Notes: a model not told the origin generated them from the letters alone. A stretch of DNA of 64,000 nt from Candidatus Parcubacteria bacterium (GCA_963827735.1 CAWHBO010000005.1:187669-251668), one strand, 5' to 3'; positions 6,191 to 35,025 are shown, counted from the first letter of the stretch. Numbers and translations: made by a program.

Positions 6191-6394
6191 ATCTTACCTT
6201 AAAAGATTTTTAAAAATAGTTATAAGTTCCAAGTTACGAGTTATGAGAAAAAGAAAGCTGAAGCATGTTTTGGTATAATCTATAGTAATTGGTTTTTTCT
6301 TTGTCTTTTTTCCGCGTTTTATGTTATAATAGTATTACAAACCTGTGGATTAGTCAATTCGCAAAATTTCATTCTTTGCAATAAAACCCCCCCC

Positions 6395-8206
6395 ATGAAA
6401 AGAAAATTTATAATGCTTTTCAAAAAATCAGCTGTCTTGATGATGGTCTGTTTTATTTTTGCAGCCGCTTTTTTTGTATCCGGCGATGTTGCCAGAGCTT
6501 CTGACCCGATCAATCTTGAACAGGCAAAAGATCTGGGTCTTAAGACCGGAACGGTTACCGATCCGCGGATCCTGATTTTGAACATCGTAAAATATCTGCT
6601 TACTTTTCTGGGACTCTTAGCTGTCGTATTTGTCATGTGGGCGGGGTTTTTATGGATGACCTCTGAGGGCGACCCTGCGAAAATTGATAAAGCGAAAAAA
6701 ACTTTGGTTAACGCCGTTATCGGCGTGGCCATCATCATATCAGCTTTTGCCATCGTTTTGTATATCAACAAGCTTGTAACTGAAGGGATATCTTCACTGG
6801 GGGACAGTTCTGCCACTGTAAGCGTCGGTCCGGGCCTCAGTGCGGCCGGAGGAAGAGTCATTGAGAGCCATTATCCAGAGCGAGGCCAGACCAATGTCCC
6901 AAGAAACACCAAGATCGCGGTCACATTCAAGGAGCCGATTGACCAAGCAACCGTCATTGCCGATACCAATGGCAACACGATTTTCGGGGACTGGATTGAT
7001 GGCAACGGCAATTTGATCATGGAAGACGGCGAGTATGACAAGCTCATCCCGGAAAATGTCAGCATCGCTCTGGCCAATGCGATTTATACCGGCCCTTGGA
7101 AAGATAATCTTTATGCCAGTGTCAGCGCGGACAGAAGAACGTTTGTGTTCACACAAATTGCGCCTTACCTCGGCAGTCCCTCGGTTGACATCAGATATAG
7201 CGTTTATTTAACCTCAAACATAAAGAAAGCCAACGGATCTGATCTTTGGATGGGCGCGGGCAGCGGTTATCTTTGGAGTTTTGAAACAGGAACGATCATT
7301 GATACGGTTCCTCCCAAGGTGGAAAGCGTGGTCCCATATCCCGGAAACCAAGAGCCGCGAAACGTGATTTTACAGATAAATTTCAGTGAAGGCATCAGCC
7401 CGATCACAGTTAACAGTTCTTCAATTTCAGTGACAGCGGATGGAAGCGCGGTGAATGGATCTCTGTATGTTTCTAATGCTTATGCCACGGTTGAATTTTT
7501 ATCCGAAACGGTTTGCGGAGTCAATTCTTGCGGGCAGACAGTATATTGCTTGCCGGCTTCTTCCACAATTGCGTCTTTGATTGACGCCGCGACTCCCGGT
7601 CTGGATGACGGCATCACTGATTTGGCCGGCAATTCATTTGATGGGAACGGCGACGGGATAGCTTCCGGCTCTGTACTCATTGCCTTTAACGCCAACGAAG
7701 CGCTGGCTTTGGCGTCAGACGCATTGGCCGCCTATGCCGCGTCTCACGGCGATGATTATGCTTGGAATTTTGATACGACCAATACGATTGATATCACAGC
7801 GCCCTCAATCATCGCTATCAATCCGGGATTTAACGCTTACGGCATAAATGCGGGGACGGCGCCATCGGCAGTTTTTAACAAACTGCTTATGAAGAGTTCG
7901 GTCCTCAAGAATATCAGCGATGATGGCAGTGTGGCTTTGTACGCCAACCCCGCATCAGCGGAAGTTGTTTTCTTTTTAAGCACCGTATCGGATAATGCTT
8001 TAAAACAAAGCACAGTTCAGATAAAACACGCCAATTTTACCGACAGCGCGGTTTATGCCCCGGAGTTTAACTCCGGGATAAAAGATATTTATCAAAATTG
8101 TTTTACTCCCGATGGAACCGGCGGCGGCGGGCCGGCGTGTACGCCAACTGTTGCCATGCCTTATTGCTGTAATGGAACGTTGAGCGGTGTGAGTTGTAAA
8201 CCGTAG
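6395..8206 (+). CDS. Secreted/surface protein with a TrbC/VirB2-pilin-like N-terminal module (signal peptide + 2 TM helices) and a large extracellular region
   Basis: N-terminal motif ...TDPRILILNIVKYLLTFLGLLAVVFVMWAGFLWMTSEGDPAKIDKAKKTL..., shared almost residue-for-residue with the next gene. 603 aa. Promoter-like tataat at 6327-6332. Confidence 0.8.
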   Translation: MKRKFIMLFKKSAVLMMVCFIFAAAFFVSGDVARASDPINLEQAKDLGLKTGTVTDPRILILNIVKYLLTFLGLLAVVFVMWAGFLWMTSEGDPAKIDKAKKTLVNAVIGVAIIISAFAIVLYINKLVTEGISSLGDSSATVSVGPGLSAAGGRVIESHYPERGQTNVPRNTKIAVTFKEPIDQATVIADTNGNTIFGDWIDGNGNLIMEDGEYDKLIPENVSIALANAIYTGPWKDNLYASVSADRRTFVFTQIAPYLGSPSVDIRYSVYLTSNIKKANGSDLWMGAGSGYLWSFETGTIIDTVPPKVESVVPYPGNQEPRNVILQINFSEGISPITVNSSSISVTADGSAVNGSLYVSNAYATVEFLSETVCGVNSCGQTVYCLPASSTIASLIDAATPGLDDGITDLAGNSFDGNGDGIASGSVLIAFNANEALALASDALAAYAASHGDDYAWNFDTTNTIDITAPSIIAINPGFNAYGINAGTAPSAVFNKLLMKSSVLKNISDDGSVALYANPASAEVVFFLSTVSDNALKQSTVQIKHANFTDSAVYAPEFNSGIKDIYQNCFTPDGTGGGGPACTPTVAMPYCCNGTLSGVSCKP

Positions 8207-8215
8207 AAAATAAGA

Positions 8216-8322
8216 TTGGGAACCCACAAATCAACAAATTTCTACAAATCTACAAATTCAGACAAAAAGTTTTTATAAGTATTTGTTGATTTGTTGCTAT
8301 TCGTAGATTTGTGGGTTCCCAA
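8216..8322. repeat. AT-rich palindromic intergenic element (outer IR ttgggaacccacaaatc / gatttgtgggttcccaa, ACAAAT-rich arms)
   Basis: 17-bp perfect outer inverted repeat with imperfect inner arms. Same family as the element at 28559-28672. Confidence 0.8.
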
Positions 8323-8379
8323 ACAAAGTTAAAATATAGAGACAATTAAATTTATTGTATTGTAATTATTTTTTAAAAG

Positions 8380-11300
8380 ATGAGGCTTAATCATAAAAAA
8401 TTACTTTTCCTTTTCCTGTTCTTGGCTGTCTTTGCCATTGGTTCCAAAGCGCTGGCTGGCGATTTGGGTTTTAATTATGCCAACAATCTTGGCCTTACCA
8501 ATTCTGATATCACGGATCCGAGAGAGTTGCTGGTTAACATCGTCAAATTCGCTTTATCTTTCGTCGGGCTGATCGCGGTTGTTTTTATCATGTATGGCGG
8601 ATTCCTTTGGATGACCGCAAACGGCGATTCCGACAGGATAAGCAAAGCCAAGAAGACTTTGATCTCAGCGGCTATCGGTTTGGCTATAATCATTTCCGCT
8701 TTTGTAATCGTTAATCTTGTGATGAGAGGAACGGGCGCGATAATTTCCGGCACTTGTACGGATTCAGAAACGAGAAGCTGCGGTTGCGGCGGAACGCAGA
8801 CTTGCTCCGGGGGATTTTGGGGATCCTGTATCGGAAGCGATTGCGGCTTAACGCCTTCGTCTTTAAATTTTCAGGTTAAGCGGACAGTTCCCAGAGATCA
8901 AGCTCTGGTTGCCAGAAATGCATCGGTTGCCGTGATTTTCAACCAGCTTATCGGCACCACCGACCAAATCACTTTGAATGATAACTTTACATTTTCTAAA
9001 ATTGCCACGATCAATCCGGATACCTTGGAAGAAGCCGCTATCGCCGAAGAGCCATATGCGGATATCACTGACGTTGTCACGTCCGGCGATGGCTATCGGT
9101 TAACGCGCCAGTCCACGGAAGCTTGCGGCGATGAAAAAGCAACGCCCCATTGTTTTGATTCTTGGACAAAGTACCGCGTTAGGATAAATTCCGGCCTCGG
9201 GGACATTGAAAATACTTCCGGAACGGCCGCTCTGGATCACGCTTTTGAATTCAGCGTAAACAATTTGATTGATACCAATCCGCCAACAGCCGGAATCATT
9301 CCCGCGCAGATTTGTTATGACGACGGAACGCTGGCCGCAGACGCCAACTATATCGGCGCCTGGGGCCGGGACGATGTCGGAATCGGAGCAATGAGATTTT
9401 ATGAACAAGGAAATCCGACGCCGACAATTTCATTTATCGGCAATTCCCAAAAATATCAATATGAAGAATATCAAGTTGATGCCACTGCTTTGACGGTGGG
9501 AGACAGTTTTGTTTCAAGAGTGGCAGTTGACGACATGGTCCCAGATACAGCGTCGGGCAGTTTTTCAACGATCATCAGGCAAGGCCATTGCTGTAACGGC
9601 ATTTTGGACGCCGGAGAAGAGGAAACCGATTGCGGCGGAACTGATTGCGAATCATGTTCAATGCAAAATCCTGTGATTTCCTCTGTATCTCCGGATAACG
9701 GAGCGCCGGGAAATTTCATAACAATCAGGGGCCGGCATTTTGGCAGTACAACCGGAGAAGTGTATTTTTGGAACGGGGTTGATTATACGGTTTTAGCCGC
9801 TTATCCAAATTCCGTAAATGCGAATTGCATAAAAAATTGGTCAGACAGCCAGATCATCGCTGTCGTTCCGGCGCTGGCTTCAAGCGGTCCGATCAGAATC
9901 ATCAGAGGCGACGGAAGAGATGACGCGACTGATGACGATAACGGCCCCTCGGTTCCCGATTTTATCGTAAACGCCGTCACTCGCCCGGGGTTATGCCTGC
10001 TTGCTCCCGATTCTGGAGTTTATCGGGACAGCTTCAGTTTGGAAGGAAATGCTTTTTCCGGTTCCGGGCAGGCAGTGTTTTTTGGAAATGAAACGGATAA
10101 TCTTGAAGCTCCGCATTCAAATTTAACCAACACCAGAGCCTCATCTTCCGTTCCCAATGCCGCTTCCGGCAGAACGACAGTTTTTTTCGCGGCCAATGGG
10201 CAGAATTCAAACTCCTTGTATTTCAACATTGCCAGAGATTTAAACAATCAGCCGGTGATAGATTATATCAGTCCGGAAAACGGTCCGATCGGAGAGTATG
10301 TCACGATTTTCGGCAGCGGTTTCAGCGCGTTTTCAGCGGGAACAAGCAATGTTACATTTACGCGCATCTCGGATGGGACGGAATATGAAATTGAAACCGG
10401 CGCGGATTTTCCAAGCGCATGCCAAGACAAATGGTGGTCAAACAGGCAGATTGTCGTAAAAGTTCCCAATGTCGGAAGCGGCCTCGGCGATTACAGGATA
10501 ACAGTCAGAAGCAGCGGAAATTTAACCAGCGAACCGAAAAATTTTGAGATAACAGCTGGCGCTCCCGGCCCGGGAATTTGTCTGCTTGATCCGGATAACG
10601 GGAAAATCGGGATGGAAATAAATGTTTTTGGAGATAATTTTGGGTCTTCCCAGGGTACCGGTTTTGTCCAGTTTTTTGCGCCCTCTTTGATAAATGTAAG
10701 CGCCGGACTTACCTGGACCAATCAGAACATTAAGGTCAATGTTCCCGTATCCGCTCAGACCGGACCGGTTAAAGTTTCTAAGGGCACTTTGAGCAATGGT
10801 TTGCAATTCCGGGTTGGAGCCTGCGCCACTTCAACCGATTGCGACATTATCAGCGGTGAAGAATGCTGCGGGGCCGGCACTTTCTGGTCAGGCGTTTGCC
10901 GGACAGCCGGAACCTGCGGACAAGGAACCGCCGATTTGACCGGCTATGGCTGGAGCTTTACGGTTTCCAGCTCTTCTTCGGCTCTTGTGTGCGGAGGATT
11001 TTCTGATCAAGCCTCATGCGACGCGGCCAGCCGATGTCCCAATTCTCCCGGAGAATGCCAGACGAATGACAGTTTAAGCACCGGCAAGAATTGCTCAAAC
11101 GCTGATTGCAACAGCCGGTTTGCCCAATGCCAAGGGCAATGCGTCTATGATGGCATCGCAAATTTATGCGTTGCCAATGCCGCGCCTCTCACAACTTCCT
11201 GCGATTTGGCCAGCACAACTTTGATTTCCTCATATACTGCCGTCTGCCGGCAAGTGAATTCCCTTGGAATTTGGCAGATCAACGAACCTTTGCTTTGTCC

Positions 11301-14300
11301 GTCCGGGACGTATCTGGATATCAATGGCTGGTGCACGGTTGGCAGCATTGGTCATCCGGCGCTATGCGGTATCTGCGGAAGCGGATTTTTATGCGACAGC
11401 AACCATCGGTGCGTGGTCAATCAGTCAATTTGCCCGGACAATTCAACCTGTACCGCCGGACAATGCGTTCTTAGCAATGAGGCCTGCGAATGCTGCTGCG
11501 AAGTCGGGCAAGACGATCGTGATTGCTGTCTTGGACTTACTTGCGAAGCGGGGGGTTGCGGCAATGATCCTGTAAACTATGGCTTATGTTCCGGCTGCCG
11601 AGTTGATCTTAACGGAAACAACGCGGACTTGACCGCCGCTGAGCAAACCGCCAGTGATAACGCCTGCAATTGCGAGGGCACGAATGGAAAGTATTGCGAA
11701 ATCGCCGACCCGGCTGATTCTTCCGATCTGGGGGTTTGTAAAGATGCCAAGCCTTGCGACAGCAGTCCCGCGCCCGCGTGCCAAGCTGATAGCGTTTTGT
11801 GCGATACGGGAGAATTTTGCGATACGGATTGTTTTTGTAAAAAAGGAAAACCTTGCGACAACGACCTTGATTCTTCAGTTTGCGGCGCTCCCGGAAATTG
11901 CGACCCGGCTACGGAGTATTGCAACCCGGCTGATTGTTTCTGCCGGCCGGGAAAAAGCTGTGATAACGATCTTGACCCTACAGTTTGCGGCGCTCCTGGA
12001 AATTGCGACCCGGTAACGGAATTTTGCGATGAAGATTGCCTTTGTCAGCCGAATTCAATTCCCGCCGGCGATCCTTGCTTTCAAAATTCTTCATCCACGT
12101 TGCCGGCTTGCAATCCATTCCATTGCGGAAGCGCTTATGAGTGTTTGACAGATAACTATGAAAGCGAAGCCAGCGCTTGCGGATATTGTTGCTGTAATCT
12201 TGATAACGCGAAAACTTCTTTGGACTCTTGCCTTAATTTGAATCCAAATTTTTACTGCGCCGCCACGGCTGATACCGGAAGCGCTTGTTTTGATTCCAAT
12301 GTTTCCACCCCTCCTAATTTCGGCATCTGTTGCGGCTGTTCAGCTGACTCTGAGTGCGGCGGAACCGGGGAAGGCTGCGGAACGGATGCCTGCTGTCATG
12401 GCCGACCAGATGTGGAATCGGTATACCCGTTAGATATGCCGGCCGCCTCGGCCGGAACAGTCTGCCGCAACACGGCAGTTGAGGTAAGATTCAACCAGCT
12501 GATGGATGTTGAAAGTTTTCCCGAAAACATCATCCTGGTCGGCGACTATGGCGTCAGCGCCTGCCCCCAAGGTACCTCTTATTTGGCAGTCAGCGGCGAA
12601 AAAGAGAAAAATTACGGTCTGTTTAAAAAATTAGCTTTTAACATTTTAGAATTCGGAAAGAAAATTCTTGCCCCTGTCCTCCAGGAGAAAGAAGCCAGCG
12701 CTTTCACTCCGGTAAGCGCCCTGCATAATTTTTGCGCGGTAAAAGGTTCGGTTATGAGTTATGCGGAAGACGATAAGAGCGTACTGGTGTTTTCTCCGTC
12801 AAAGCTACTCGACCCCAGCAGGCTTTTTTACGTGATTGTCAAAGGCGATGAAGATTTAAGCAGCGTTACCGGCGTAAAAAATCAATGGGGAATCGGCATG
12901 AATCCCTTGGGTAGCCCTTCGGCTGGAGACAACACTTTTAACAAGATAACTTACGCCCATTCTTATACTTGGTCTTTTACCACGCTTTCCGATCAAGGGA
13001 GTTCCAAGGGCGTCTGCAAGGTTGACCGCGTAACTGTCGCTCCCGCGTCTTATCTTTTTCAAACGGTAAAAAATGATCTCAATGAGGCAGACAACAAAGA
13101 TTCAATCGCTGACAGTGATAAGATTTTTACGGCTAAAGCCAAAACCGCCGACGGTCAGACAGTCGTTCCGGTAAGTGATTATTCCTGGGATTATGCCTGG
13201 ACCGTATTGGATGGAAGCATTGCCCAAATCATAAGCGTTCCCAGCTTTACCGCGACCGGCAGCCGTCAGCTTGTCAGGGCTTCAGCGAACATCACGGACG
13301 GACGGACAGTTCTTTCCGCAACCGCTTCTTCAACCATTGTGCCATCCGGCATGGCTCCTTTCAGCAAGACGGGTGATGCCGAAATATACGTTTTTGTCTG
13401 CCAGAATCCGTGGCCGCCGGTCGTGGGAGGACTTTGGGCTCCTTGGCGGGATAACGGATCTAATTGTTCAGGCGGTTCCACCGGCTGCAACAACACGAAT
13501 TATGAGATTTATTACTGCCGCGATGCCGGAGTTTCAGGTACTTTTGACGATTTGCCTGCAATCGTCAGCAGTTCCACTCTAAGCTTCAGACAGACTCTTG
13601 TCTGCAGCGAAGGGGGCGCGCCTTGCGCCGTTTTGGGGGCGGTTTGCGGCACAGCGGGAACATGCGAAATCGGAGTGCTTAAAGAATCTTTCTTTTTCAG
13701 GGCCGCCGTTCCGGACGTGAGTACCATTACCATCGCCGGCAGTCCGGATGATGAAGGCGGCATCGCGCTTTTGCATTGGAATGATGTTCCCCCCGCCGCC
13801 ATTCCGGCAGAAGAGTCATTAAGTGCGTACAAAGTGTATTATGGCCTTTCTTCAGGAAATTATACCGAGTCTCTGATCGTCAGTATCCTGGATCCGCATA
13901 CGGCAATTTCTCCGTACGCAGTCAGCGGCCTTAAAAATAATGTTAAATATTATTTTGCCATCACCGCGGTTTACGCGAGCGGAGCGGAAAGCGGATTTTC
14001 CAACGAGATTGTTTTAACACCGGCGGATAAGGACGCGCCTGCGGCTCCAAACAATTTTACAGCCATCGCCACTAGCACAAAAGTGGAGCTGAACTGGGAC
14101 GCAGTCAATGGGGCTTCTGGCTACGTCGTGCATTTCGGAACAAACTCAGGCGTATATGGAAGCTCGGAAGATATCGGCGCGGATACGCAAGTGATCGTAG
14201 CCGGCCTGATAAACGGACAGACCTATTATTTTGCGCTTTCTGCCAAGGATAAGAATGGAAATGAGAGTTTGTATTCCAATGAAGTTGCCGCAACCCCGAT

Positions 14301-14310
14301 TTTACCGTAA
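8380..14310 (+). CDS. Giant (1976 aa) surface protein: TrbC/VirB2-like N-terminal module, IPT/TIG repeats, Cys-rich tandem modules, C-terminal fibronectin type III domains
   Basis: N-terminus paralogous to the 6395 ORF (ITDPRELLVNIVKFALSFVGLIAVVFIMYGGFLWMTANGDSDRISKAKKTL). IPT-like segments (NPVISSVSPDNGAPGNFITIRGRHFG; QPVIDYISPENGPIGEYVTIFGSGF). About 35-aa Cys-rich tandem repeats (KPCDNDLDSSVCGAPGNCDP...). Fn3-like C-terminus. A single uninterrupted ORF. Confidence 0.85.
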   Translation: MRLNHKKLLFLFLFLAVFAIGSKALAGDLGFNYANNLGLTNSDITDPRELLVNIVKFALSFVGLIAVVFIMYGGFLWMTANGDSDRISKAKKTLISAAIGLAIIISAFVIVNLVMRGTGAIISGTCTDSETRSCGCGGTQTCSGGFWGSCIGSDCGLTPSSLNFQVKRTVPRDQALVARNASVAVIFNQLIGTTDQITLNDNFTFSKIATINPDTLEEAAIAEEPYADITDVVTSGDGYRLTRQSTEACGDEKATPHCFDSWTKYRVRINSGLGDIENTSGTAALDHAFEFSVNNLIDTNPPTAGIIPAQICYDDGTLAADANYIGAWGRDDVGIGAMRFYEQGNPTPTISFIGNSQKYQYEEYQVDATALTVGDSFVSRVAVDDMVPDTASGSFSTIIRQGHCCNGILDAGEEETDCGGTDCESCSMQNPVISSVSPDNGAPGNFITIRGRHFGSTTGEVYFWNGVDYTVLAAYPNSVNANCIKNWSDSQIIAVVPALASSGPIRIIRGDGRDDATDDDNGPSVPDFIVNAVTRPGLCLLAPDSGVYRDSFSLEGNAFSGSGQAVFFGNETDNLEAPHSNLTNTRASSSVPNAASGRTTVFFAANGQNSNSLYFNIARDLNNQPVIDYISPENGPIGEYVTIFGSGFSAFSAGTSNVTFTRISDGTEYEIETGADFPSACQDKWWSNRQIVVKVPNVGSGLGDYRITVRSSGNLTSEPKNFEITAGAPGPGICLLDPDNGKIGMEINVFGDNFGSSQGTGFVQFFAPSLINVSAGLTWTNQNIKVNVPVSAQTGPVKVSKGTLSNGLQFRVGACATSTDCDIISGEECCGAGTFWSGVCRTAGTCGQGTADLTGYGWSFTVSSSSSALVCGGFSDQASCDAASRCPNSPGECQTNDSLSTGKNCSNADCNSRFAQCQGQCVYDGIANLCVANAAPLTTSCDLASTTLISSYTAVCRQVNSLGIWQINEPLLCPSGTYLDINGWCTVGSIGHPALCGICGSGFLCDSNHRCVVNQSICPDNSTCTAGQCVLSNEACECCCEVGQDDRDCCLGLTCEAGGCGNDPVNYGLCSGCRVDLNGNNADLTAAEQTASDNACNCEGTNGKYCEIADPADSSDLGVCKDAKPCDSSPAPACQADSVLCDTGEFCDTDCFCKKGKPCDNDLDSSVCGAPGNCDPATEYCNPADCFCRPGKSCDNDLDPTVCGAPGNCDPVTEFCDEDCLCQPNSIPAGDPCFQNSSSTLPACNPFHCGSAYECLTDNYESEASACGYCCCNLDNAKTSLDSCLNLNPNFYCAATADTGSACFDSNVSTPPNFGICCGCSADSECGGTGEGCGTDACCHGRPDVESVYPLDMPAASAGTVCRNTAVEVRFNQLMDVESFPENIILVGDYGVSACPQGTSYLAVSGEKEKNYGLFKKLAFNILEFGKKILAPVLQEKEASAFTPVSALHNFCAVKGSVMSYAEDDKSVLVFSPSKLLDPSRLFYVIVKGDEDLSSVTGVKNQWGIGMNPLGSPSAGDNTFNKITYAHSYTWSFTTLSDQGSSKGVCKVDRVTVAPASYLFQTVKNDLNEADNKDSIADSDKIFTAKAKTADGQTVVPVSDYSWDYAWTVLDGSIAQIISVPSFTATGSRQLVRASANITDGRTVLSATASSTIVPSGMAPFSKTGDAEIYVFVCQNPWPPVVGGLWAPWRDNGSNCSGGSTGCNNTNYEIYYCRDAGVSGTFDDLPAIVSSSTLSFRQTLVCSEGGAPCAVLGAVCGTAGTCEIGVLKESFFFRAAVPDVSTITIAGSPDDEGGIALLHWNDVPPAAIPAEESLSAYKVYYGLSSGNYTESLIVSILDPHTAISPYAVSGLKNNVKYYFAITAVYASGAESGFSNEIVLTPADKDAPAAPNNFTAIATSTKVELNWDAVNGASGYVVHFGTNSGVYGSSEDIGADTQVIVAGLINGQTYYFALSAKDKNGNESLYSNEVAATPILP

Positions 14311-14393
14311 AATCTTAAATAAGGCGGTAGAAAAACGAACAATAATCTTTGGGAATATTTTTTAGGCCATTTTTAATTTAAAAATCTAATCCT

Positions 14394-15125
14394 ATGTTTG
14401 ATAATTTAGACGACAAAACCACTCAAACCGCTCCTGTCCCGGGGAATGTTCCTGTGCCGGATGGTCCGCAAACGGCGGAAGATATTTTTTCAGAAACGAA
14501 TGATTCTGCGCCGACAAGCCCAAGCAATTTAACTGATCAGCCAAAAGTTCAAAGCGAACAATGGTCGCAAGTTGATCCGGGCATTGACAGTCTGGACATT
14601 GAAAAGCAAGGCAAGAAAAAAATGATAATGCTTATGCTCATGTTTATCGGGATGATTTTGATCGGCTGGGGAACATATTTGGCTTTTGGAAAGATTGTGT
14701 CTAGCATCGGTAGTTTTGGAAAAAGCACTGTTGAAAAAACCGAAACAGATAAAGCCGCCTCAAACTTGAATCAAACCGATGAAGCCAACACGACCAACGA
14801 TACCATTTCGACAAAAGAGCCAGACACCGTTTCCGGAACTTCAACAGAGGACTATATACCCGCTCCCGCTGAAGTTGAAAACGCCGATGCCGACAAAGAC
14901 GGGCTTTTGGATACGGAAGAAAATGTTTTAGGCACCAATCCTGGGAAAGTTGACAGCGATGATGACGGCCTTTTTGATCGCGAAGAAGTCAGGATTTATA
15001 AAACTGATCCCTTGAAGTCAGATACGGATAGCGATGGGTTTATGGATGGCGAGGAGGTAAAATCAGGCTATAATCCCAAGGGAGACGGGAAGCTGTACCG
15101 GATAAATGCTCAAACAGCGCAATAA
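14394..15125 (+). CDS. Membrane-anchored protein with acidic DxDxDG Ca-binding (TSP3/dockerin-like) repeats
   Basis: Single TM helix (IMLMLMFIGMILIGWGTYLAF). C-terminal DADKDGLLDTEE...DSDDDGLFDREE...DTDSDGFMDGEE repeats. Confidence 0.65.
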   Translation: MFDNLDDKTTQTAPVPGNVPVPDGPQTAEDIFSETNDSAPTSPSNLTDQPKVQSEQWSQVDPGIDSLDIEKQGKKKMIMLMLMFIGMILIGWGTYLAFGKIVSSIGSFGKSTVEKTETDKAASNLNQTDEANTTNDTISTKEPDTVSGTSTEDYIPAPAEVENADADKDGLLDTEENVLGTNPGKVDSDDDGLFDREEVRIYKTDPLKSDTDSDGFMDGEEVKSGYNPKGDGKLYRINAQTAQ

Positions 15126-15140
15126 TTTAAAAAATATCCA

Positions 15141-16178
15141 ATGGAACAATCAAAAAATCAAATAAGCGGCGCATCGGTCGGCTTATCCAATGTCAATGAC
15201 CCGGTCATTCATACGATGCCAAAACGCTTTATAAATTCCAAAGAAGAAAGAGGAACCTCTCACAAAGGAGCCGGACTTTTGATTTTCGGCATTGGACTTT
15301 TAATTTTGGGCGTCGGAGCGGTTTTTGTGTATTTTTATGTTTTTAATGAGCAGGCGGTACAGACGAATGAGTCTGCGTTAAAGTCGGGGCTTGTTTCTCG
15401 CGAGGTTACAGAGAAAGCGACAACCTCAAAAGATGCTGAAGATGATCAAATTAAACCGGAAATCGCCGTCAACACCGATACGACCGCGTTGACTCCCGCA
15501 AATGCAGAGGTTACGGACAAAGTCAGCAACAAAATCGAAGTTTCTTCTTCAAGTCCGGAAACGGAATCTGCCACCCGGACGATCAAAACCATTGATGTCT
15601 CGGATACTTTTGTAAACAAAGAATACTCTTTATCTCCAGATGTTGACCAGGATGGTTTGTCCGACGTGGAGGAGTTGATTTTTGGCACCGGCACCGGCTC
15701 AAAAGACAGCGATAATGACGGTTATTCGGATTTGGCTGAGATCGGTAATCAGTATAATCCGGCCGGAGAAGGGAAGTTGATCGTTAATCCGGGCATAAAA
15801 AAATATACTGATAACACGGTTGGATACAGCTTGTACTTTCCGGCCAGCTGGCAGACGAGTGCAATTGATTCCGGCAACACAATTGTTTTTCAGATTGACG
15901 GTATGGAATACATTCAGATCATCGTTTCGGACAAGGCATCCGGTCAAAGCCTGGACGATTGGTATAAGGAAAAATTCAACGCCACCCTCATAAAAGGCGA
16001 ACAAATTGTTTATAAAAAGGGTTGGCTAGGCATAAAATCCGAAGATGGACTGATGTACTTTTTATCAGACGGCTTAAGTGATAAAATTTTTACAGTTAAT
16101 TATGTTTTAGGAGACAAGACGATTTTGTCATATAAGAGTATTTTTGAGATGATGATCAATACATTGGAGAAGAAATAA
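15141..16178 (+). CDS. Paralogous membrane-anchored DxDxDG-repeat protein with an extra C-terminal domain
   Basis: TM helix (LLIFGIGLLILGVGAVFVYFYVF), DVDQDGLSDVEE and DSDNDGYSDLAE repeats, and the same ...YNPAGEGKL motif as the previous gene. Confidence 0.65.
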   Translation: MEQSKNQISGASVGLSNVNDPVIHTMPKRFINSKEERGTSHKGAGLLIFGIGLLILGVGAVFVYFYVFNEQAVQTNESALKSGLVSREVTEKATTSKDAEDDQIKPEIAVNTDTTALTPANAEVTDKVSNKIEVSSSSPETESATRTIKTIDVSDTFVNKEYSLSPDVDQDGLSDVEELIFGTGTGSKDSDNDGYSDLAEIGNQYNPAGEGKLIVNPGIKKYTDNTVGYSLYFPASWQTSAIDSGNTIVFQIDGMEYIQIIVSDKASGQSLDDWYKEKFNATLIKGEQIVYKKGWLGIKSEDGLMYFLSDGLSDKIFTVNYVLGDKTILSYKSIFEMMINTLEKK

Positions 16179-16279
16179 TCCCGCCATTTATTATCTTCTG
16201 TTGAGGGCGGGATCCCGCAGAAGGCGGGAGATATTGGGATATTAAGATATTAGAATATTAGGAAATTAGAAATTAGAAA

Positions 16280-16702
16280 TTGGTTATTTGGGTTATGATA
16301 GAAATTAACAATCAGACAAGAACAAAGATTGATTTGAAAAAAGTCAGGCAAGTGGCGGAAAATTTTTTGGAGTTTTATAAACAGGGAGATAAAGAAGTTT
16401 CCATTGCTTTTATCGGGGATAAGAGAATGCGGGATTTGAACCGGATGTACCGCCGAAAAGACAAAGTCACTGATATTTTATCATTTTGTGATGACGGTCA
16501 AGCAATTTTGGGAGAAGTTGTGATTGATTTTCAGCAGATCAAACGGCAAGCCAAGCAATTTTCAAAAAGCGCCAAAGAAGAATTGATTTTTATTTTGGTC
16601 CATGGACTTTTGCATCTGATCGGGCGGGAAGATGATACGGAAAAGGGGCGGTTGGAAATGATTGAGGAAGGGGAGAGGTTTCTTTTGGCAAATTTTTTTT
16701 AA
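16280..16702 (+). CDS. ybeY: rRNA maturation endoribonuclease YbeY (true start probably the in-frame ATG at 16295)
   Basis: Metal-binding H...H.....H motif (HGLLHLIGREDDTEKG). MIEINNQ-type N-terminus from 16295. Confidence 0.85.
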   Translation: MVIWVMIEINNQTRTKIDLKKVRQVAENFLEFYKQGDKEVSIAFIGDKRMRDLNRMYRRKDKVTDILSFCDDGQAILGEVVIDFQQIKRQAKQFSKSAKEELIFILVHGLLHLIGREDDTEKGRLEMIEEGERFLLANFF

Positions 16703-16763
16703 TGATCAATATCCAATAATCAATCAATATTTAATATTATAATATCTAATTGAAACCATTCGG

Positions 16764-17129
16764 ATGATAAAATTTAAGCGTCTGATAAAAAGTGTTAAAT
16801 ATGCGATAAGTGGCTTGATAAAAGCCTTTCGTGATGAGCAGAATCTTAAAATTCAAAGTATTTTTGCGATTTTTGCGATCATCTTCGGTTTTTTGCTTCA
16901 AATTGGTAAATTTGAGTGGTTGGTGGTAATATTAACAATAGGCATGGTTTTGTTGATGGAACTTATCAACAGCGCGATTGAGCGCTTGACGGACATGTTA
17001 AAGCCAAGGCTGGATCCATATAGCAAGGAAATCAAGGATATCATGGCCGGCGCGGTAATGCTTGCTTCCATCATGGCCGTCATCGCCGGCGTAATAATTT
17101 TTGTTCCGAAAATTTTTGAAAAATTATAA
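16764..17129 (+). CDS. dgkA: Diacylglycerol kinase (prokaryotic DgkA family)
   Basis: 3-TM 121-aa protein with an ELINSAIE motif. Synteny with ybeY. Confidence 0.8.
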   Translation: MIKFKRLIKSVKYAISGLIKAFRDEQNLKIQSIFAIFAIIFGFLLQIGKFEWLVVILTIGMVLLMELINSAIERLTDMLKPRLDPYSKEIKDIMAGAVMLASIMAVIAGVIIFVPKIFEKL

Positions 17130-17137
17130 AATTTTAT

Positions 17138-17503
17138 ATGTCAATCAAAACTTCAATCATGATTTTGCTTTTCTGCCTGCTGGCGGCTTTTATCGCGGCT
17201 TGGTATCTGGCCGACAAAATGCCGGGAAATCCGAATATGAGAAAAGCGCAATTTGAGCAAAAACAGTTAAGCGAAGAAGAGCTTAAAAAAAACAAAATGG
17301 AAGCTGATTGGGAGCGCGCGGTGAAAGATTTGCAGGAGCGGGAAGCAAGATTGACGCCGGAAGACCGCAAACGGATGGAAGCTGATTGGGAACAAGCGGT
17401 GAAAGATTTGCAGGAACGAGAAGCAAAAATGACGCCGGAAGACCGCGAAAAAATGGAGGCTGATTGGAAAAAGATGATGGAAACTTTTGAAAAAAATCAA
17501 TAA
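17138..17503 (+). CDS. Small membrane-anchored coiled-coil protein with three about 30-aa tandem repeats
   Basis: N-terminal TM, then three copies of MEADWE.AVKDLQEREA..TPEDR. The DNA repeat period is about 90 nt (17290-17470). Confidence 0.55.
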   Translation: MSIKTSIMILLFCLLAAFIAAWYLADKMPGNPNMRKAQFEQKQLSEEELKKNKMEADWERAVKDLQEREARLTPEDRKRMEADWEQAVKDLQEREAKMTPEDREKMEADWKKMMETFEKNQ

Positions 17504-17520
17504 TAAATAATTATAAGAAT

Positions 17521-18705
17521 ATGCAAAAACCATCAAAATTCGCGTTTAATCTTATCATCGCGGTTGTGTTAACTTTAGGGCTGTCAATTTCCTTCCAGTC
17601 ATTGCTCGCCGCTTGGAACCCCCCCACAGCCAACCCGCCGGACGGCAATGCTCTTCCCCCCATAACCGTGGATGGGGCCGGAAATACCAATCCGGGAACT
17701 TTTACCGCCGCCGGAACCATAACTGCAAATACAATCACGGCTACCGCTGGGTACACCACTGCTGGAAACATTGTTGCTTCCGGCAATGTCGGCATCGGAG
17801 TCATTCCGGACGGGAGTTATAAGTTGCATGTTGCCGGCGGCGCAATCGGTTCCGCGGCATATTTGCCGCTAACGACAAGTTGGAGCACATACGGCACCGG
17901 TGATGGAGGGGCCGCGATTTACAATGACGCCGGGACATATCAAGCTTTGATGATTGTCGGTGCGGACCGAGGCCAAGGCTACGGCCGCTGGGTGCGCGTC
18001 TGGGATTCGCTTTGGGCTTCGTCCCGGGTTGATTCTCCGATATACTATGACGCGGATGATCTGGCATACTATGTTAATCCTAACGGTAGCAGCATTATAA
18101 ATGATCAATCAAACAATACAATTCATACCGGATATTTGGATTTTCGATATGCCGGTGGTGATAGCGGACAAGGAAACAATGCTTATGCCATATTTCAAGA
18201 AGGGGGAGCATGGGCGCATCCTTATCCAGACTTAAGAATCGCATACCACACCGGAATCAAACTAGGCGCAAATTCCAGCTACAACGGGATACGATTTTAT
18301 AATGACTATGATATGTCTACCCTGGTTATGTCCGTAAATGATGTTGCAACAGGCGGCGCCAACAATGTTTGGGTTGAGAATCAGTTAAGCGCGGGATCTT
18401 TTGTGTATCACTCTGATGAAATTTTGAAAAAAGATATTCAGACAATTCCCGATGCTCTTCAAAAAGTGCTTGAGCTTAAGGGTGTGGAATTCACCTGGAA
18501 AGAATCAGGAGAAGAAAGTGTTGGTTTGATCGCCCAAGACGTGGAAAAAGTTTTTCCGGAGCTGGTTGAAACCGGAGGCAATGGATTGAAAGGCGTGCAG
18601 TACGGCAATTTGGTTGCGCCCCTCATTGAAGCGGTTAAAGAACAGCAGGCAATGATAAAAAGTTTGGAAGAGCGGATAAGTGAGTTGGAGAAAAAGAGCG
18701 AATAA
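17521..18705 (+). CDS. Secreted protein with a C-terminal phage tail-fiber/endosialidase-type intramolecular chaperone (peptidase S74) domain
   Basis: C-terminus SDEILKKDIQTIPDALQKVLELKGVEFTWKESGEESVGLIAQDVEKVFPELV...YGNLVAPLIEAVKEQQAMIKSLEERISELE matches the S74 chaperone consensus. N-terminal signal/TM and a Gly/Thr-rich fibre-like region. Confidence 0.75.
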   Translation: MQKPSKFAFNLIIAVVLTLGLSISFQSLLAAWNPPTANPPDGNALPPITVDGAGNTNPGTFTAAGTITANTITATAGYTTAGNIVASGNVGIGVIPDGSYKLHVAGGAIGSAAYLPLTTSWSTYGTGDGGAAIYNDAGTYQALMIVGADRGQGYGRWVRVWDSLWASSRVDSPIYYDADDLAYYVNPNGSSIINDQSNNTIHTGYLDFRYAGGDSGQGNNAYAIFQEGGAWAHPYPDLRIAYHTGIKLGANSSYNGIRFYNDYDMSTLVMSVNDVATGGANNVWVENQLSAGSFVYHSDEILKKDIQTIPDALQKVLELKGVEFTWKESGEESVGLIAQDVEKVFPELVETGGNGLKGVQYGNLVAPLIEAVKEQQAMIKSLEERISELEKKSE

Positions 18706-18714
18706 ACAAAATAT

Positions 18715-19893
18715 ATGCAAGAAAATTTAAGAAAATTTAGAAGTTTAATTGTCAAGCATTTATGGATCATCGTGCCGGTGTTTTTGTTGTTGATTTCCTC
18801 GTCCTTGGTTTTTGCAACTGGTGTCTGGAATCAAGGCTGGCGCGTGAATAGCAATGCAGATAAACAGCCCATAACCATAGATAACGTAAACACAACAAAA
18901 TGTTTAACCAATACTTCCACCATTGATTATTTCGTGCCGACCAATACAGCTACTGAGTGGAATGAATTTGTCGCGCATAAGCCAAGTGGAATAACAATAG
19001 AAGAATGCGCAACCAATTGTGATTCGTCTGCTACTTTAGGATCGGGAGACACAAGTTTTACAGTTGACGCTGGGGGTAATAGTGGTAGTATTAAAACGGG
19101 TACCTGCGCCAGTACTTATTGTGATAGTCTTCCTAGGGCAATATGTAATAATGGTGAATGGCAACTTTCCGGAAGCAATCCCTGTCGGTCAGGAGTTTTT
19201 GCATGGAGTTGTACTAGTTTTCCTGGTGGATTGGGTGATTGCTCTGGTATAACAAATTGGTGCCCTGGAGGCGCGTCAGGAAGTTGCACTTTAGGAGATT
19301 CTTGCGTAATAGCTTGCCAATCCGGAATAGGTGGAAGCGGATGTGAGTGTGGCGATATCTCAAGTAATTGGGTTTTTAATGGTAGCACCTTGGATTTAAT
19401 CCCACGATCTTGTGTCGGCGGAGTAACTGTTTGTCCTACTCAATCTTATTCTACCAAAGATGGTTGTGGTACAAAAAATTTGTATGATCAAGTTCCAGGC
19501 ACCACTGAATATGCGTGTCCAGGAAATTGCGGAGGTAAAGTTGTAGCTCCATGTAATGCCGGTGGAACTTGGGGTAGTATAAGTGATACTTGTCATCAAG
19601 CGGCAAATTGTCCGGCGGGATCAAGTTTCCCTGGTTGTTCGTATACCGCTATGGTAAGTGGTGAAACAAAAGCAGGAACATGTGCTGGCGCTGGGACATG
19701 TACTGTTTCTTGTTTTGATGGCAATGTTCAAGCCACAAACAATCAATGTGGTTATTGTGGAGATGGCTGGTGTGATAGGGATGGATTGTATGGTCCGAAT
19801 GAAAATTGTAATTGTTATGATTGTCCTGTTTGTCCTGATGGTTGCAGTTGCACTCAGTATGGTTGTTACAATGGATTTAATTTTTGTGGTTAA
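18715..19893 (+). CDS. Cys-rich secreted protein (unknown function)
   Basis: N-terminal TM/signal (LWIIVPVFLLLISSSLVFATG). About 40 Cys residues, many in CxxG/CxC patterns. A strong terminator follows. Confidence 0.6.
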   Translation: MQENLRKFRSLIVKHLWIIVPVFLLLISSSLVFATGVWNQGWRVNSNADKQPITIDNVNTTKCLTNTSTIDYFVPTNTATEWNEFVAHKPSGITIEECATNCDSSATLGSGDTSFTVDAGGNSGSIKTGTCASTYCDSLPRAICNNGEWQLSGSNPCRSGVFAWSCTSFPGGLGDCSGITNWCPGGASGSCTLGDSCVIACQSGIGGSGCECGDISSNWVFNGSTLDLIPRSCVGGVTVCPTQSYSTKDGCGTKNLYDQVPGTTEYACPGNCGGKVVAPCNAGGTWGSISDTCHQAANCPAGSSFPGCSYTAMVSGETKAGTCAGAGTCTVSCFDGNVQATNNQCGYCGDGWCDRDGLYGPNENCNCYDCPVCPDGCSCTQYGCYNGFNFCG

Positions 19894-19930
19894 TGAAATT
19901 TCAACCAAAGTTAAAATTTGATTTTATCAA

Positions 19931-19968
19931 AAAATCGTTAAACCCAGATTAAAGTTTAACGATTTTTT
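19931..19968 (+). terminator. Rho-independent terminator
   Basis: aaatcgttaaac / gtttaacgattt, a perfect 12-bp stem, followed by a T-run. Confidence 0.8.
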
Positions 19969-20128
19969 ATATTTCTTGAAATCTTGACTTTTTTCCAAAA
20001 ATTTGTTATAACCATAACAAGCATTTTGACCTTTGAAAAACAAAAAAATAGCGTAAAATCGTGGCAAACAAATCGTTGTTTTCCGCGGCATATATTGCAG
20101 TATTTAAGAAAAGGCATTTTTTATTCCG

Positions 20129-21775
20129 ATGAAGCATCGGGAAAGGAAGGAGGTAGGGAGTATGGGAAATTTAACTTTTAGAAAGTTTAGAATGGTGTTT
20201 ATTGTGTTTGTGGTAATTATCCTTTTAGCAGGATGTAACGGCGGCGGTGGAGATTCCGACAACGACGGAGGAAGCAATCCTGTAAAGAGCACTTGGTATC
20301 AGGACCCAGACAGTGATTTACTTCCTTCTGGTAATCCAATGACCGCTAGTACTCAGCCGGGCACCAATTATTATGTGGAGTCGCATTTTACTTCACTTAA
20401 GACAGACAACTGCCCAGATGTCGCTAACCAGAATCAGGAAGATATGGATAAAGACGGCATCGGCGATGCCTGTGACAGCGATAAAGACGGTGACGGAATT
20501 GCGAATGGATCCGACAATTGTTCAGGAACAGCAAATCCCGATCAACTGGACACAGACAAAGATGGCATCGGCGAGGCCTGTGACAGCGATAAAGACGGTG
20601 ACGGAATTGCGAATGGATCCGACAATTGTTCAGGAACAGCAAATCCCGATCAACTGGACACAGACAAAGATGGCATCGGCGACGCCTGTGACAGCGATAA
20701 AGACGGTGACGGAATTGCGAATGGATCCGACAATTGTTCAGGAACAGCAAATCCCGATCAACTGGACACAGATAAAGATGGTATTGGCAATGTTTGCGAT
20801 TCTGACATTGACGGAGATGGAATATCTAATGACAAGGATAATTCCCCCGCAATCCATAATCCTGACCAATCGGATTTGGATAAAGACGGTATCGGGGATG
20901 TAAGTGACCCTGATAAAGACGGTGACGGAATATCCAATGACGAGGATAATTCCCCCACAATCCATAACCCTGACCAATCGGATTTGGATAAAGACGGTAT
21001 CGGGGATGTAAGTGACCCTGATAAAGACGGTGACGGAATATCCAATGACGAGGATAATTGCCCAACAACCCCTAACCAAGCACAAACCGATGTTGACGAA
21101 GACGGCACAGGCGATGAGTGTGACGATTGTTGCGATAATTGCAGTAGTTTTGAATACGTCGCTTCGCAGACGTATAAGAATTGGGGCGATTCTCCGTCTC
21201 TGGCTTTGGTGGCAGCGTCTATGTATGGATATACAACCGGTCCATATCCTGCTCCTGGCAACATCGCGGTTTTTAAAACCCAAAGTCAGTTTGGTAATCC
21301 GGCTGAACCGCCATATTATCCAGAGTTCGCTGGAACGATTGGGATCATCAACGAAGTTGACGGGAATGTCATTACTGTTCAGTTCGGCGAAGAGGATATC
21401 AAAGAGTATTACCAGGTTGGTGCCGGTTTATTGGTGGATAATATAGGTAAGTATTATTACAATTTTACTTACATATATTATGCGGGACTACCAAGCCATT
21501 GGTATGAAATCTCGCAAAGCAAATATTATTTTGCTGGTTTTGACCAGCAAGTAAAAAAAGGAGAAGTATGCCGTCTGAGGGCGCCTTATAGCGCCAACAC
21601 CACATACGCCTGGACATCACCAGGCGCAGTTACATTGTCGGACAGTTCAAGCTTTATGCCGACCTTTGATACTTCAAATTTGGATGTCGGCTGGTACGAA
21701 TTCACCGTTACGCTGACGCAGCCTTATGACGTGCCTGCGACAGCGCCTGTAAGGGTTGAGATAATCAACCCATAA
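20129..21775 (+). CDS. Lipoprotein with thrombospondin type-3 repeats and a C-terminal globular domain
   Basis: Lipobox-like LLAGCNGG. Repeated DKDGIGDACDSDKDGDGIANGSDNCSGTANPDQLDTD (TSP3 consensus DxDxDG...DNC...NPDQ.D.D). Confidence 0.75.
   Translation: MKHRERKEVGSMGNLTFRKFRMVFIVFVVIILLAGCNGGGGDSDNDGGSNPVKSTWYQDPDSDLLPSGNPMTASTQPGTNYYVESHFTSLKTDNCPDVANQNQEDMDKDGIGDACDSDKDGDGIANGSDNCSGTANPDQLDTDKDGIGEACDSDKDGDGIANGSDNCSGTANPDQLDTDKDGIGDACDSDKDGDGIANGSDNCSGTANPDQLDTDKDGIGNVCDSDIDGDGISNDKDNSPAIHNPDQSDLDKDGIGDVSDPDKDGDGISNDEDNSPTIHNPDQSDLDKDGIGDVSDPDKDGDGISNDEDNCPTTPNQAQTDVDEDGTGDECDDCCDNCSSFEYVASQTYKNWGDSPSLALVAASMYGYTTGPYPAPGNIAVFKTQSQFGNPAEPPYYPEFAGTIGIINEVDGNVITVQFGEEDIKEYYQVGAGLLVDNIGKYYYNFTYIYYAGLPSHWYEISQSKYYFAGFDQQVKKGEVCRLRAPYSANTTYAWTSPGAVTLSDSSSFMPTFDTSNLDVGWYEFTVTLTQPYDVPATAPVRVEIINP
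20457..21057. repeat. Near-perfect 120-bp tandem repeats inside the TSP3 lipoprotein gene (3 copies of type 1, 2 copies of type 2)
   Basis: Identical 120-nt blocks starting near 20460, 20580 and 20700, and a second block type at about 20818 and 20938. Confidence 0.85.
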
Positions 21776-21797
21776 AATGTTGTTAACCTTTAGCCAA

Positions 21798-21834
21798 TCA
21801 CCAAACTAAGCAGTTAGTTTGGTGATTTTTTTAT
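21798..21834 (+). terminator. Rho-independent terminator
   Basis: atcaccaaacta / tagtttggtgat, a 12-bp stem, followed by a T-run. Confidence 0.8.
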
Positions 21835-33711: not shown

Positions 33712-34040
33712 ATGGAAAAGAAATTCAGTCTTATAACGGCAGTAATAGCAATCATAATGGGGGCAATCTTTTTTTCATCGCCTGTCCTTGCCGGAGGCGA
33801 CGGTTATTCAGTCAAACAGGCTGAAGATCTGTGGCAATATGGTGTTGCTGATAAACAAAAGGCAATCACAGTGTTGGAAAAAGTGATAGACCAAAAACCT
33901 TCAAACAACAAGGCGCGTTATCTGTTGGGGCAATATAATTTTGAACTTGGCAAATTTGATGAGGCTTACAAAGCTTTTTCTCCCAATCCGGTTAAAGTGG
34001 ATTATGGCAAAGAGATCGCTGACCTCTACTTTAAAAATGC
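33712..34040 (+). CDS. Small secreted TPR-like protein, 3'-truncated at the compositional junction (the ORF runs artificially into high-GC DNA)
   Basis: Signal peptide [29 protein letters not shown] and TPR-like helices. No stop codon before the GC shift at about 34040. Confidence 0.55.
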
Positions 34041-34043
34041 CGA

Positions 34044-35025
34044 GTCAAGGAGGATCAGGACTACCTCCAGCGCCACCCCGACGGCCCCACCTGCCATTTC
34101 CCTCGGCCGGGCTGGAAGCTGCCGCGCCGCTACCAGGAGGAGGGCCGCGACAGCACGCGGTGGCTCGGCTTCCCGTTCCGCGACGGCGACATCGTGATCA
34201 GCACCCCGTCCAAGACCGGGACCACGTGGGCGCAGATGATCTGCGCGCTGCTGATATTCGGCGAGCCGCAGCTCCCGGCCCCGCTCGGGCGCCTGTCGCC
34301 GTGGCTGGATCACCTGGTCGCGCCACGAGATGAGGTACATGCCCTGCTGGCCGCCCAGCAGCACCGGCGGTTCATCAAGACCCACACCCCACTGGACGGC
34401 CTGCCGCTCGACCCCCGCGCCACCTACCTGGTGACCGCCCGGCACCCGCTGGACGTGGCCGTGTCGACCTACCACCACTGCGCCAACATCGACGAGGCAC
34501 GGTGGCGGCAGCTGATGGGCGAGCCCGAGCCGCCGAGGCCACCGCCGCCGCCAGAGCCGCTGCGCGACTGGCTGCTCCGCTGGATCGCCGACGACACCAA
34601 CCCGGCTCGAGGACCTCGACACGCTGCCCGGCCTCATGTACCACCTCACCGACGCCTGGGCCCGGCGCCGCGAGCCGAACATCCTGCTCGTGCACTACGA
34701 CAACCTGTGCGCCGACCTTGACGGCCAGATGCGCTGGCTGGCAGGCCAGCTCGGCATCACCATCCCCGAGCACGCCTGGCCCGCGCTCGTCCGGGCGGCC
34801 ACATTCGAGAACATGTCCCGCAACGCGGACCAGCTGGTCCCTGCCCCCGGCCTGTTCAAGAGCAACGCCGCGTTCTTCCGCCGGGGCACCTCCGGCGAGG
34901 GACGCGAGATCCTCAGCGGCGCCGAGATCGCCGACTACCACGCCCGCGTGGCGGGGATGGCGCCCCCCGACATGCTTGCCTGGCTCCACTCGCCCCGCCC
35001 CGGAGCCGTGACGGCAATGCCGTAA
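34044..35025 (+). pseudogene. PAPS-dependent sulfotransferase, 5'-truncated at the junction and split by a frameshift near 34600-34615
   Basis: 5'-PSB motif TPSKTGTTW and 3'-PB motif RHPLDVAVS in frame 0. The C-terminal part ([25 protein letters not shown]...FFRRGTSGEGREI) is in another frame. No start codon on the high-GC side. Confidence 0.65.

Follow-up and report, generated by a model that had tools for sequence, protein, structure and literature searches.

Patescibacteria have a type IV secretion system (T4SS) like that of Gram-positive bacteria, a type in which pilins are normally lacking and surface adhesins are used; yet VirB2-like pilins are greatly expanded in these bacteria (PMC12102498). 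Matches to the Pfam families PF18895 or PF04956 occur in 1,948 Patescibacteria assemblies, with 441 arrays of 2–11 genes. Pilins are encoded near virB4 or other T4SS genes in 1135 of the 1948 assemblies, an arrangement that is typical without being defining, and PrgB-like adhesins were not detected in the group (PMC12102498). In S. epibionticum, a series of pilins lies within the T4SS cluster and is essential (PMC10633639). Here, we analysed positions 6395–21775 of a 64,000-nucleotide stretch of a Candidatus Parcubacteria bacterium genome (GCA_963827735.1, CAWHBO010000005.1:187669-251668; hereafter, the window). Two neighbouring + strand genes in this region, P1 (6395–8206) and P2 (8380–14310), encode proteins of 603 and 1976 amino acids (aa) in which a pilin-like N-terminal module is fused to a large ectodomain. 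P1 and P2 are a lineage-wide conserved cell-surface pair of Candidatus Falkowbacteria. The conserved fusion of a pilin module to giant ectodomains appears to be undescribed, and may mediate contact with the surroundings.

The first-pass annotation, made from this DNA alone, had called the locus 'not a described system'. That description holds in part. Publications already cover VirB2-like pilins of Patescibacteria and their arrays (PMC12102498, PMC10633639), and the module belongs to a Pfam family; the giant-ectodomain fusion was not described in the literature found. Within this literature, coverage of which was incomplete, there was no description of the module fused to giant ectodomains, of a conserved P1/P2 pair, or of concerted evolution of the module.

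The module common to P1 and P2 comprises ~100 aa at the N-terminus, a Sec signal peptide followed by a two-helix hairpin (BLASTP of P1 against P2, E 1e-31), and no other open reading frame (ORF) of the window bears it. The two copies had been described as a near-identical module of ~90 aa; they are clearly shared, but near-identity overstates the ~61% found over 74 core columns (~65–70% in DNA). A hydropathy scan showed a signal peptide and two transmembrane helices in both proteins, with KxxKAKK in the loop. The signal peptides end in AxA-type sites for signal peptidase I (P1, ...DVARA↓SDP; P2, ...SKALA↓GDL), and neither N-terminus contained a class III signal peptide with a prepilin-peptidase site (G↓F/M-x-x-x-E). 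Both proteins matched T4SS_pilin (PF18895) above its gathering threshold of 26.6 bits, with scores of 38.5 bits for P1 (aa 61–123) and 41.5 bits for P2 (aa 49–114). Scores for TrbC (PF04956) were 23.6 bits (E 6e-5) and 23.3 bits (E 7.5e-5), respectively, under the threshold of 27.9, and a sub-threshold match was also found to the NCBIfam entry 'Mbov_0395 pilin-like conjugal transfer protein'. The pilin-like N-terminus that had been proposed was therefore confirmed through PF18895, though not through TrbC itself, and the contrary outcome, a generic hydrophobic N-terminus with no hidden Markov model (HMM) support, was not what the profiles returned.

Wider searches placed the module in a very large family. 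Precomputed PF18895 matches were listed for nearly all P1 orthologues. When 1.84 billion proteins were scanned with HMMER, the module profile matched 77,029 cluster representatives at E ≤ 1e-3, among which the motifs DPR, GFLWMTS.G and KAKK.L recur; a word-indexed homologue search with the 132-aa module gave 3 matches only. A P1 profile of 104 orthologue sequences was aligned by hhalign with A. tumefaciens VirB2 (the query was checked, and is 99.2% identical to annotated virB2 genes). The alignment covered 55 in-register columns at 35% identity and E 0.0038, with a probability of only 8.7%, and spanned the TDP motif, helix 1, the W-M motif, the loop and helix 2. No match was found for the module profile among PDB sequences or, by hhalign, with F TraA, nor for the module by tblastn against plasmids. 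The fold search of the hairpin returned generic helical hairpins, and Ig domains dominated the whole-chain search. At the level of sequence, these data support assignment of the module to a specific VirB2/TrbC-type pilin-like family, as opposed to a generic signal peptide with a hydrophobic stretch; homology to classical VirB2 is probable, though distant.

Members of the T4SS_pilin family in Patescibacteria resemble P1 and P2 in having a signal peptide and a two-helix hairpin, and in occurring as same-strand tandem paralogues. The published members are treated as small, however, whereas the ectodomains of P1 and P2 measure 470 and 1,850 aa; at 603 and 1976 aa, neither protein matches the size of a short stand-alone pilin (about 100–200 aa). 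P1 and P2 also differ from the published pilins in that they do not adjoin virB4, and are found throughout the lineage at one fixed locus among housekeeping genes. With VirB2/TrbC (PF04956; A. tumefaciens VirB2) they have a common plan of signal peptide, helix, short loop and helix, with the TDP and W-M motifs in register. They differ in falling under the TrbC threshold, in having no adjacent T4SS, and in a large C-terminal fusion that would preclude cyclisation. The N-terminus of VirB6/CedA shares homology with the pilin of the same system (PMC9905601), a precedent for a pilin-like hairpin in a larger membrane protein that is not part of a pilus. Those are polytopic channel or platform proteins, while P1 and P2 run on into extracellular, beta-rich stalks.

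The same hairpin was also seen in repeated form. Many members of the module family contain 2–17 hairpins, with up to 17 in tandem in one polypeptide, so that up to 34 transmembrane helices would be expected in such poly-pilin proteins. Protein P0010 (locus L087, 3001–8328) has 17 modules in 1775 aa; its neighbours Ribosomal_L39e, Csa1 and Cas4 suggest that it comes from an archaeon. Alternative-code read-through was considered as a gene-calling artefact behind these matches, and was rejected, as the P0010 ORF is uninterrupted in code 11. Since up to 17 tandem copies occupy one ORF, the hairpin can sit in the membrane as an integral unit.

Conservation of the locus was assessed with a P2-family alignment, which was run against GTDB, each species being represented by one genome, and gave 358 confirmed stretches. 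The best 80 loci, two complete chromosomes (CP066698.1 and OZ246416.1) among them, were mostly from metagenome-assembled genomes (MAGs) of Falkowbacteria, Patescibacteria or Parcubacteria. The source, an uncultured bacterium with very small cells, belongs to the Candidatus Falkowbacteria lineage within the Patescibacteria (Candidate Phyla Radiation, CPR), in agreement with the CPR origin first suggested. The P1 of the window itself is present in NCBI, ENA and Logan, on a contig of 256,523 bp (P0154). When all ORFs of these loci were searched with the pilin HMM, a P1-like protein (580–1030 aa) followed by a P2-like protein (1450–4213 aa), each with a single N-terminal module, was found in 66 related genomes. 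Full-length orthologues were identified for both proteins, with identities of only about 30–50%; in the source records, from the Candidatus Falkowbacteria/Patescibacteria group, those of P1 are named hypothetical or 'Ig-like domain-containing protein'. The usual gene order in dozens of species-level genomes was relA (on the − strand), P1, P2, P3, P4, ybeY, dgkA and ftsA, and gene order in an independent Logan assembly was identical to that of the window. P3 (14394–15125, +, 243 aa) and P4 (15141–16178, +, 345 aa) are thus conserved syntenic partners. The block ends with ybeY (16280–16702, +) and dgkA (16764–17129, +), which are housekeeping genes and do not encode surface proteins. No VirB4, VirB6 or VirD4 was found in positions 1–34000 of the window, or within ~10 kb in four Pfam-annotated related loci (L003–L006).

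The architecture and its conservation are therefore real, and wider than the single locus of the first-pass annotation showed: relatives keep P1–P4 in order with ybeY and dgkA. Its treatment of seven surface genes as one unit did not survive the comparison, for only P1–P4, ybeY and dgkA are syntenic, and the genes at 17138–21775 are absent from all 84 related loci.

Several variations were seen among the relatives. In some genomes the P1–P2 and P2–P3 gaps are hot spots for inserts, which vary (L003, 4593–9909; L005, 9603–9902 and 16747–21652) and include a GIY-YIG gene, a DUF333 protein and MopE-type Cys-rich proteins of 1,300–1,500 aa with Peptidase_C1 or PKD. Close to the P1/P2 locus, at a distance of a few kb on the upstream side of relA, certain relatives carry an ORF with the pilin module that is short or broken into fragments (L005, 4125–4795; L042, 3948–4688, − strand). 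A fully syntenic locus is present in many MAGs titled 'uncultured Gammaproteobacteria bacterium ... binchicken' (L007, L010, L012, L014 and others), titles that look like default mislabels. Bins of Phycisphaerales (L030) and Balneolaceae (L034) also carry the locus, which is probably explained by bin contamination.

The modules of P1 and P2 evolve in concert, and proved to be more alike within a genome than between genomes. Across 67 genomes, within-genome identity of the two modules averaged 68%; published Patescibacteria pilin arrays average 25% and do not exceed 54% (PMC12102498). Between genomes, orthologous modules were 54% identical, and P1 and P2 modules 52%. The within-genome value exceeded the between-genome mean in all but one genome (66/67), the best match of P1 among the 67 P2 proteins was that of its own genome in 36/67, and zero columns of the module told P1 from P2. 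Where residues were identical, codon identity within genomes was 0.54; the codon pools would predict 0.44, and comparisons between genomes gave 0.40. Thus, modules are homogenised within genomes, while the ectodomains stay distinct orthologue families. This could have come about by episodic gene conversion, by selection that keeps the two modules fitting each other, or by the two together. Recent gene conversion in the window genome itself was rejected, given codon identity at only 17/42 identical residues and DNA identity of ~65–70%.

P1 was characterised from its ORF, Pfam matches, hydropathy and an AlphaFold2 model. It consists of a signal peptide (aa 1–35), the hairpin (aa ~57–131, window ~6563–6787), a Gly/Ser linker (aa 132–147) and an ectodomain (aa ~150–603) with three Big_5 immunoglobulin-like (Ig-like) domains (68.9 bits). 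Prediction from the single sequence was unusable, with a predicted local distance difference test score (pLDDT) of 38, and the model based on the 104-sequence alignment was used instead (pLDDT 86.2; predicted template modelling score 0.73). In this model a signal-peptide helix spans residues 6–28 and the hairpin helices residues 57–88 and 94–131, the hairpin being predicted with confidence (pLDDT 85–92), as the AlphaFold check proposed for the N-terminal module had called for. The linker at 132–147 is disordered, and the ectodomain from 150 to 603 is all-beta, with pLDDT mostly >90. The best Foldseek matches were to the surface-layer (S-layer) protein SbsC of Geobacillus stearothermophilus (4uic, E 2.3e-10; 4uj6; 2ra1), although template modelling scores (TM-scores) over the whole P1 chain were only 0.14–0.16 and the likeness is at the level of the common Ig-like domain. 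Like SbsC, P1 is a string of Big_5-type Ig-like domains. It differs in its N-terminus, which is a membrane hairpin, and in a low global TM-score. The N-terminal domain of SbsC binds secondary cell-wall polymer; neither P1 nor P2 gave a Pfam match to an SLH domain or to an SbsC-type domain for binding wall polymer. The NCBI annotation of P1 begins at Met16 (window 6440; P0154, 588 aa). Translation from the ATG at 6395 would give the protein an n-region rich in Lys and Arg, as is usual in signal peptides, and this ATG may be the true start rather than 6440.

For P2, the ORF, Pfam matches, hydropathy and an orthologue alignment were used. A signal peptide (aa 1–26) and the hairpin (aa ~46–118, window ~8515–8733) are followed by a Cys-rich juxtamembrane stretch, and then by an accessory region (aa ~150–400) that is present in about a third of orthologues. 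Three TIG domains lie within aa ~430–850, and a Cys-rich region extends over aa ~850–1340. The remainder comprises Big_5-like sequence (weak Big_5) with a conserved C-terminal region (aa ~1340–1790), and two fn3 domains up to aa 1976. IPT/TIG, Cys-rich and Fn3 modules had been assigned to both ectodomains; this is correct for P2, while P1 has Big_5 and not TIG. P2 contains 106 Cys (5.4%), of which 87 were kept in ≥80% of 57 orthologues. In the alignment of these orthologues the module was the most conserved segment; over aa 51–100 the orthologues matched the P2 of the window at 51% identity. Outside the module and aa ~150–400, conservation was 25–45% along the full length, and no hypervariable tip was present.

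P3 has a cytoplasmic N-terminus, one transmembrane helix, a Ser/Thr-rich linker and TSP3_bac Ca-binding repeats. P4 is its paralogue, with a cytoplasmic N-terminus, one transmembrane helix, a linker and weak TSP3_bac repeats, and has a PsbP-like C-terminal domain in addition.

Two further systems resemble P1 and P2 in design. PrgB-type adhesins of Gram-positive conjugation systems are large, adhesin-like surface proteins that go with a monoderm-type T4SS, and no sequence relation between them and P1 or P2 was detected. PrgB is anchored by LPXTG and sortase. Modular type IV pilins such as PilB of S. sanguinis have an adhesin-type module C-terminal to a pilin module (PMC8179133), the same design as here; they belong to an unrelated pilin superfamily and use other assembly machinery, and their class III signal peptide is absent from P1 and P2.

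From the computed gene structure, module family, predicted topology, domain content, conservation, synteny and concerted evolution, the following model may be drawn. P1 and P2 would be exported by Sec, and the signal peptide cut after the predicted AxA-type site. The VirB2/TrbC-type hairpin is predicted to stay in the cytoplasmic membrane with its short Lys-rich loop facing the cytoplasm. A flexible Gly/Ser linker would join the hairpin to the stalk outside the cell, the stalk being three putative SbsC/CopC-like Ig domains in P1, and ~1,850 aa of predicted disulfide-rich, TIG, Ig-like and Fn3 modules in P2. If these form a linear string of modules of beta-sandwich size, the P2 ectodomain would be several tens of nm long. 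We infer that the hairpin is never released, and acts as a permanent membrane anchor and lateral assembly module. P1 and P2 hairpins may pack together, and possibly also with the short pilins of the genome; such packing would explain why the two modules are kept alike within each genome. The stalks would then cross the wall and contact other cells or surfaces, with the Ca-binding, single-pass P3 and P4 as probable conserved partners. The genes at 17138–21775 would be an extra, strain-specific surface set outside this unit.

We judge the chances about even that the P1/P2 hairpin stays in the membrane, where it would anchor contact-making surface stalks and serve in their assembly. Several observations weigh against this interpretation. 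Fold searches do not separate a pilin hairpin from other helical hairpins. The short pilins nearest to the module sit in classic tandem arrays, with genes of ~131 aa (~125–340 aa across arrays), and a stand-alone pilin of 136 aa is 63% identical to the P2 module; similar short pilins in arrays keep open a true pilin role for P1 and P2. Codon identity reaches 0.8–0.98 in a few genomes, and gene conversion between adjacent paralogues could homogenise the modules with no physical interaction between them. Finally, we infer adhesion from domain types only. Host attachment is only a candidate role. P2 has no hypervariable tip, the neighbourhood is one of housekeeping genes, and P1 is S-layer-like; a structural role in the envelope would suit these facts just as well. 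P1 and P2 would in that case be housekeeping parts of the envelope, a membrane-anchored S-layer-type or wall-spanning scaffold for shape or integrity rather than for partner attachment. The SbsC structures as best matches of P1, with Big_5 being the SbsA/SbsC-type Ig domain, point in this direction, as does the position of the pair as a core, single-locus lineage feature between relA and the ybeY–dgkA–ftsA(–ftsZ) block, and P2 is conserved over its whole length. Such a scaffold is nonetheless unlikely: Pfam identified no SLH or other known wall-binding domain, a Cys content as high as that of P2 is generally atypical for S-layer proteins, the SbsC likeness does not extend beyond common Ig domains, and orthologues of the pair share only about 30–50% identity.

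A different possibility is that P1 and P2 serve as genuine VirB2-type pilins of modular build, whose hairpins are drawn out of the membrane and polymerised by the Patescibacteria T4SS, likely as minor or tip subunits among short major pilins, and whose Ig-like or adhesin stalks, displayed on the pilus, bind a host cell. The module is assigned to T4SS_pilin and its alignment with VirB2 is in register, very similar short pilins occur in tandem arrays, and co-assembly into one filament would select for homogenisation of the two modules. Both termini of the pilin face outward in conjugative pili, so that a C-terminal graft is topologically allowed. The essential pilin series of S. epibionticum lies inside a T4SS cluster (PMC10633639), the adhesin role is vacant in Patescibacteria, where no PrgB-like adhesins were detected (PMC12102498), and modular type IV pilins show that a pilin can carry a grafted adhesin (PMC8179133). 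However, T4SS genes are missing within ~10 kb in the window and in annotated relatives, and a graft of 50–200 kDa per subunit would be sterically hard to place on a five-start filament of 74–87 Å (PMC9905601); with such crowding, P1 and P2 would at best be rare subunits. A C-terminal fusion is also incompatible with the head-to-tail cyclisation that is reported for TrbC and TrhA-type pilins, and a T4SS pilus has not been demonstrated for any CPR bacterium in the literature searched. We therefore regard a true pilin role as unlikely. Much less probable still, and in our view very nearly dismissed, is that the shared N-terminus is a signal peptide with hydrophobic segments of a generic kind. The pilin label would then be an artefact of the databases, and the cluster a run of secreted proteins that arose by chance. 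The sub-threshold TrbC scores, the generic hairpins of the fold search and the lack of matches in PDB sequences, plasmids and F TraA would fit. Above-threshold PF18895 scores in both proteins, recurrence of the three motifs across the 77,029 cluster representatives, the in-register VirB2 alignment, and conservation of the pair and its order in 66 genomes do not.

P1 and P2 covalently join a pilin module to adhesin-like or S-layer-like stalks, and provide a testable link between pilin expansion and missing adhesins in Patescibacteria. They are also named targets for metaproteomics and cryo-electron tomography of Falkowbacteria. The module itself occurs in at least four formats, namely short pilins, tandem gene arrays, poly-hairpin proteins and the N-terminal anchor of giant proteins; 'T4SS pilin' counts in CPR genomes should therefore not be taken for counts of pilus subunits. 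A bolder proposal, and a distinctly doubtful one, is that P1 and P2 are the first modular conjugative-type (VirB2-like) pilins, whose hairpins and the short pilins would together build a filament that depends on the T4SS and bears Ig-like and giant disulfide-rich stalks. If this were true, P1 and P2 would act as the 'missing adhesin' for the T4SS of Patescibacteria, and the retention and expansion of VirB2-like pilins alongside a monoderm-type T4SS would be explained.

The region as a whole is filled by ten consecutive + strand ORFs from 6395 to 21775, at the coordinates first given, with ybeY, dgkA and a coiled-coil gene interspersed as described. The hydropathy scan found an N-terminal signal or transmembrane segment in all seven surface proteins, consistent with the suggestion that each is secreted or membrane-anchored. 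A promoter-like site, TTGTCT-18-TATAAT with TG (6301..6330, +), is the best in the divergent intergenic region between relA and P1, and a terminator-like hairpin with a 14-bp stem and a T run (21796–21827, +), the strongest of the region, lies directly 3′ of the last gene; both are consensus matches only.

The four genes at 17138–21775 are a genome-specific insertion of surface-protein genes, outside the conserved unit. They encode an anchored coiled-coil protein (17138–17503, +), a tail-fibre-like protein with a Peptidase_S74 chaperone domain (17521–18705, +), a Cys-rich secreted protein with no Pfam family (18715–19893, +) and a TSP_3-repeat lipoprotein (20129–21775, +). By tblastn, these genes had matches in 0/84 related loci. 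The gap between dgkA and ftsA measured 25–334 bp in 22/22 loci with both genes, and 4,982 bp in the window. The S74 and TSP3 assignments made at first were upheld, with 58.7 bits for the C-terminal Peptidase_S74 (threshold 22) and 172.6 bits for TSP_3, in a protein with the lipobox LLAG↓C. The S74 C-terminus matched C-termini of PHROG tail fibres with E down to 9e-35. A prophage origin was rejected, since the phage-like part is confined to this C-terminus, and the family, named 'tail fiber domain-containing protein', is a common cellular surface protein of CPR bacteria that is also found in Nanoarchaeia. Nor was a mobile-element signature convincing for the 5-kb insertion: no integrase was found, and the only flanking repeat was a weak 26-nt direct repeat (73%) at 17091 and 21989. 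Two of the genes contain internal repeats, of 108 nt in tandem with decaying identity in the TSP_3 gene (family D1, 20405–21052), and of 78 nt in tandem, encoding MEADWE..AVKDLQEREA, in the coiled-coil gene (17297–17452). A Logan contig from the same strain, assembled independently, stops within the S74 gene.

Base composition changes abruptly further along the window. G+C content leaps from ~40% to ~73% within ~50 bp at ~34040–34050, inside the ORF at 33712–34197 and with no Ns, and holds at 62–74% from ~34050 to the window end. The window looks like a CPR genome joined to that of an unrelated high-G+C organism, for which chimeric assembly or concatenation could be the origin. The P1–P4 locus and the insertion lie entirely within the low-G+C part. 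There, the P2 gene has 50–51% G+C over positions 10001–14000, against 36–45% in flanking genes; as P2 is conserved across the lineage, this probably reflects a composition rich in Gly, Cys, Ala and Pro rather than transfer.

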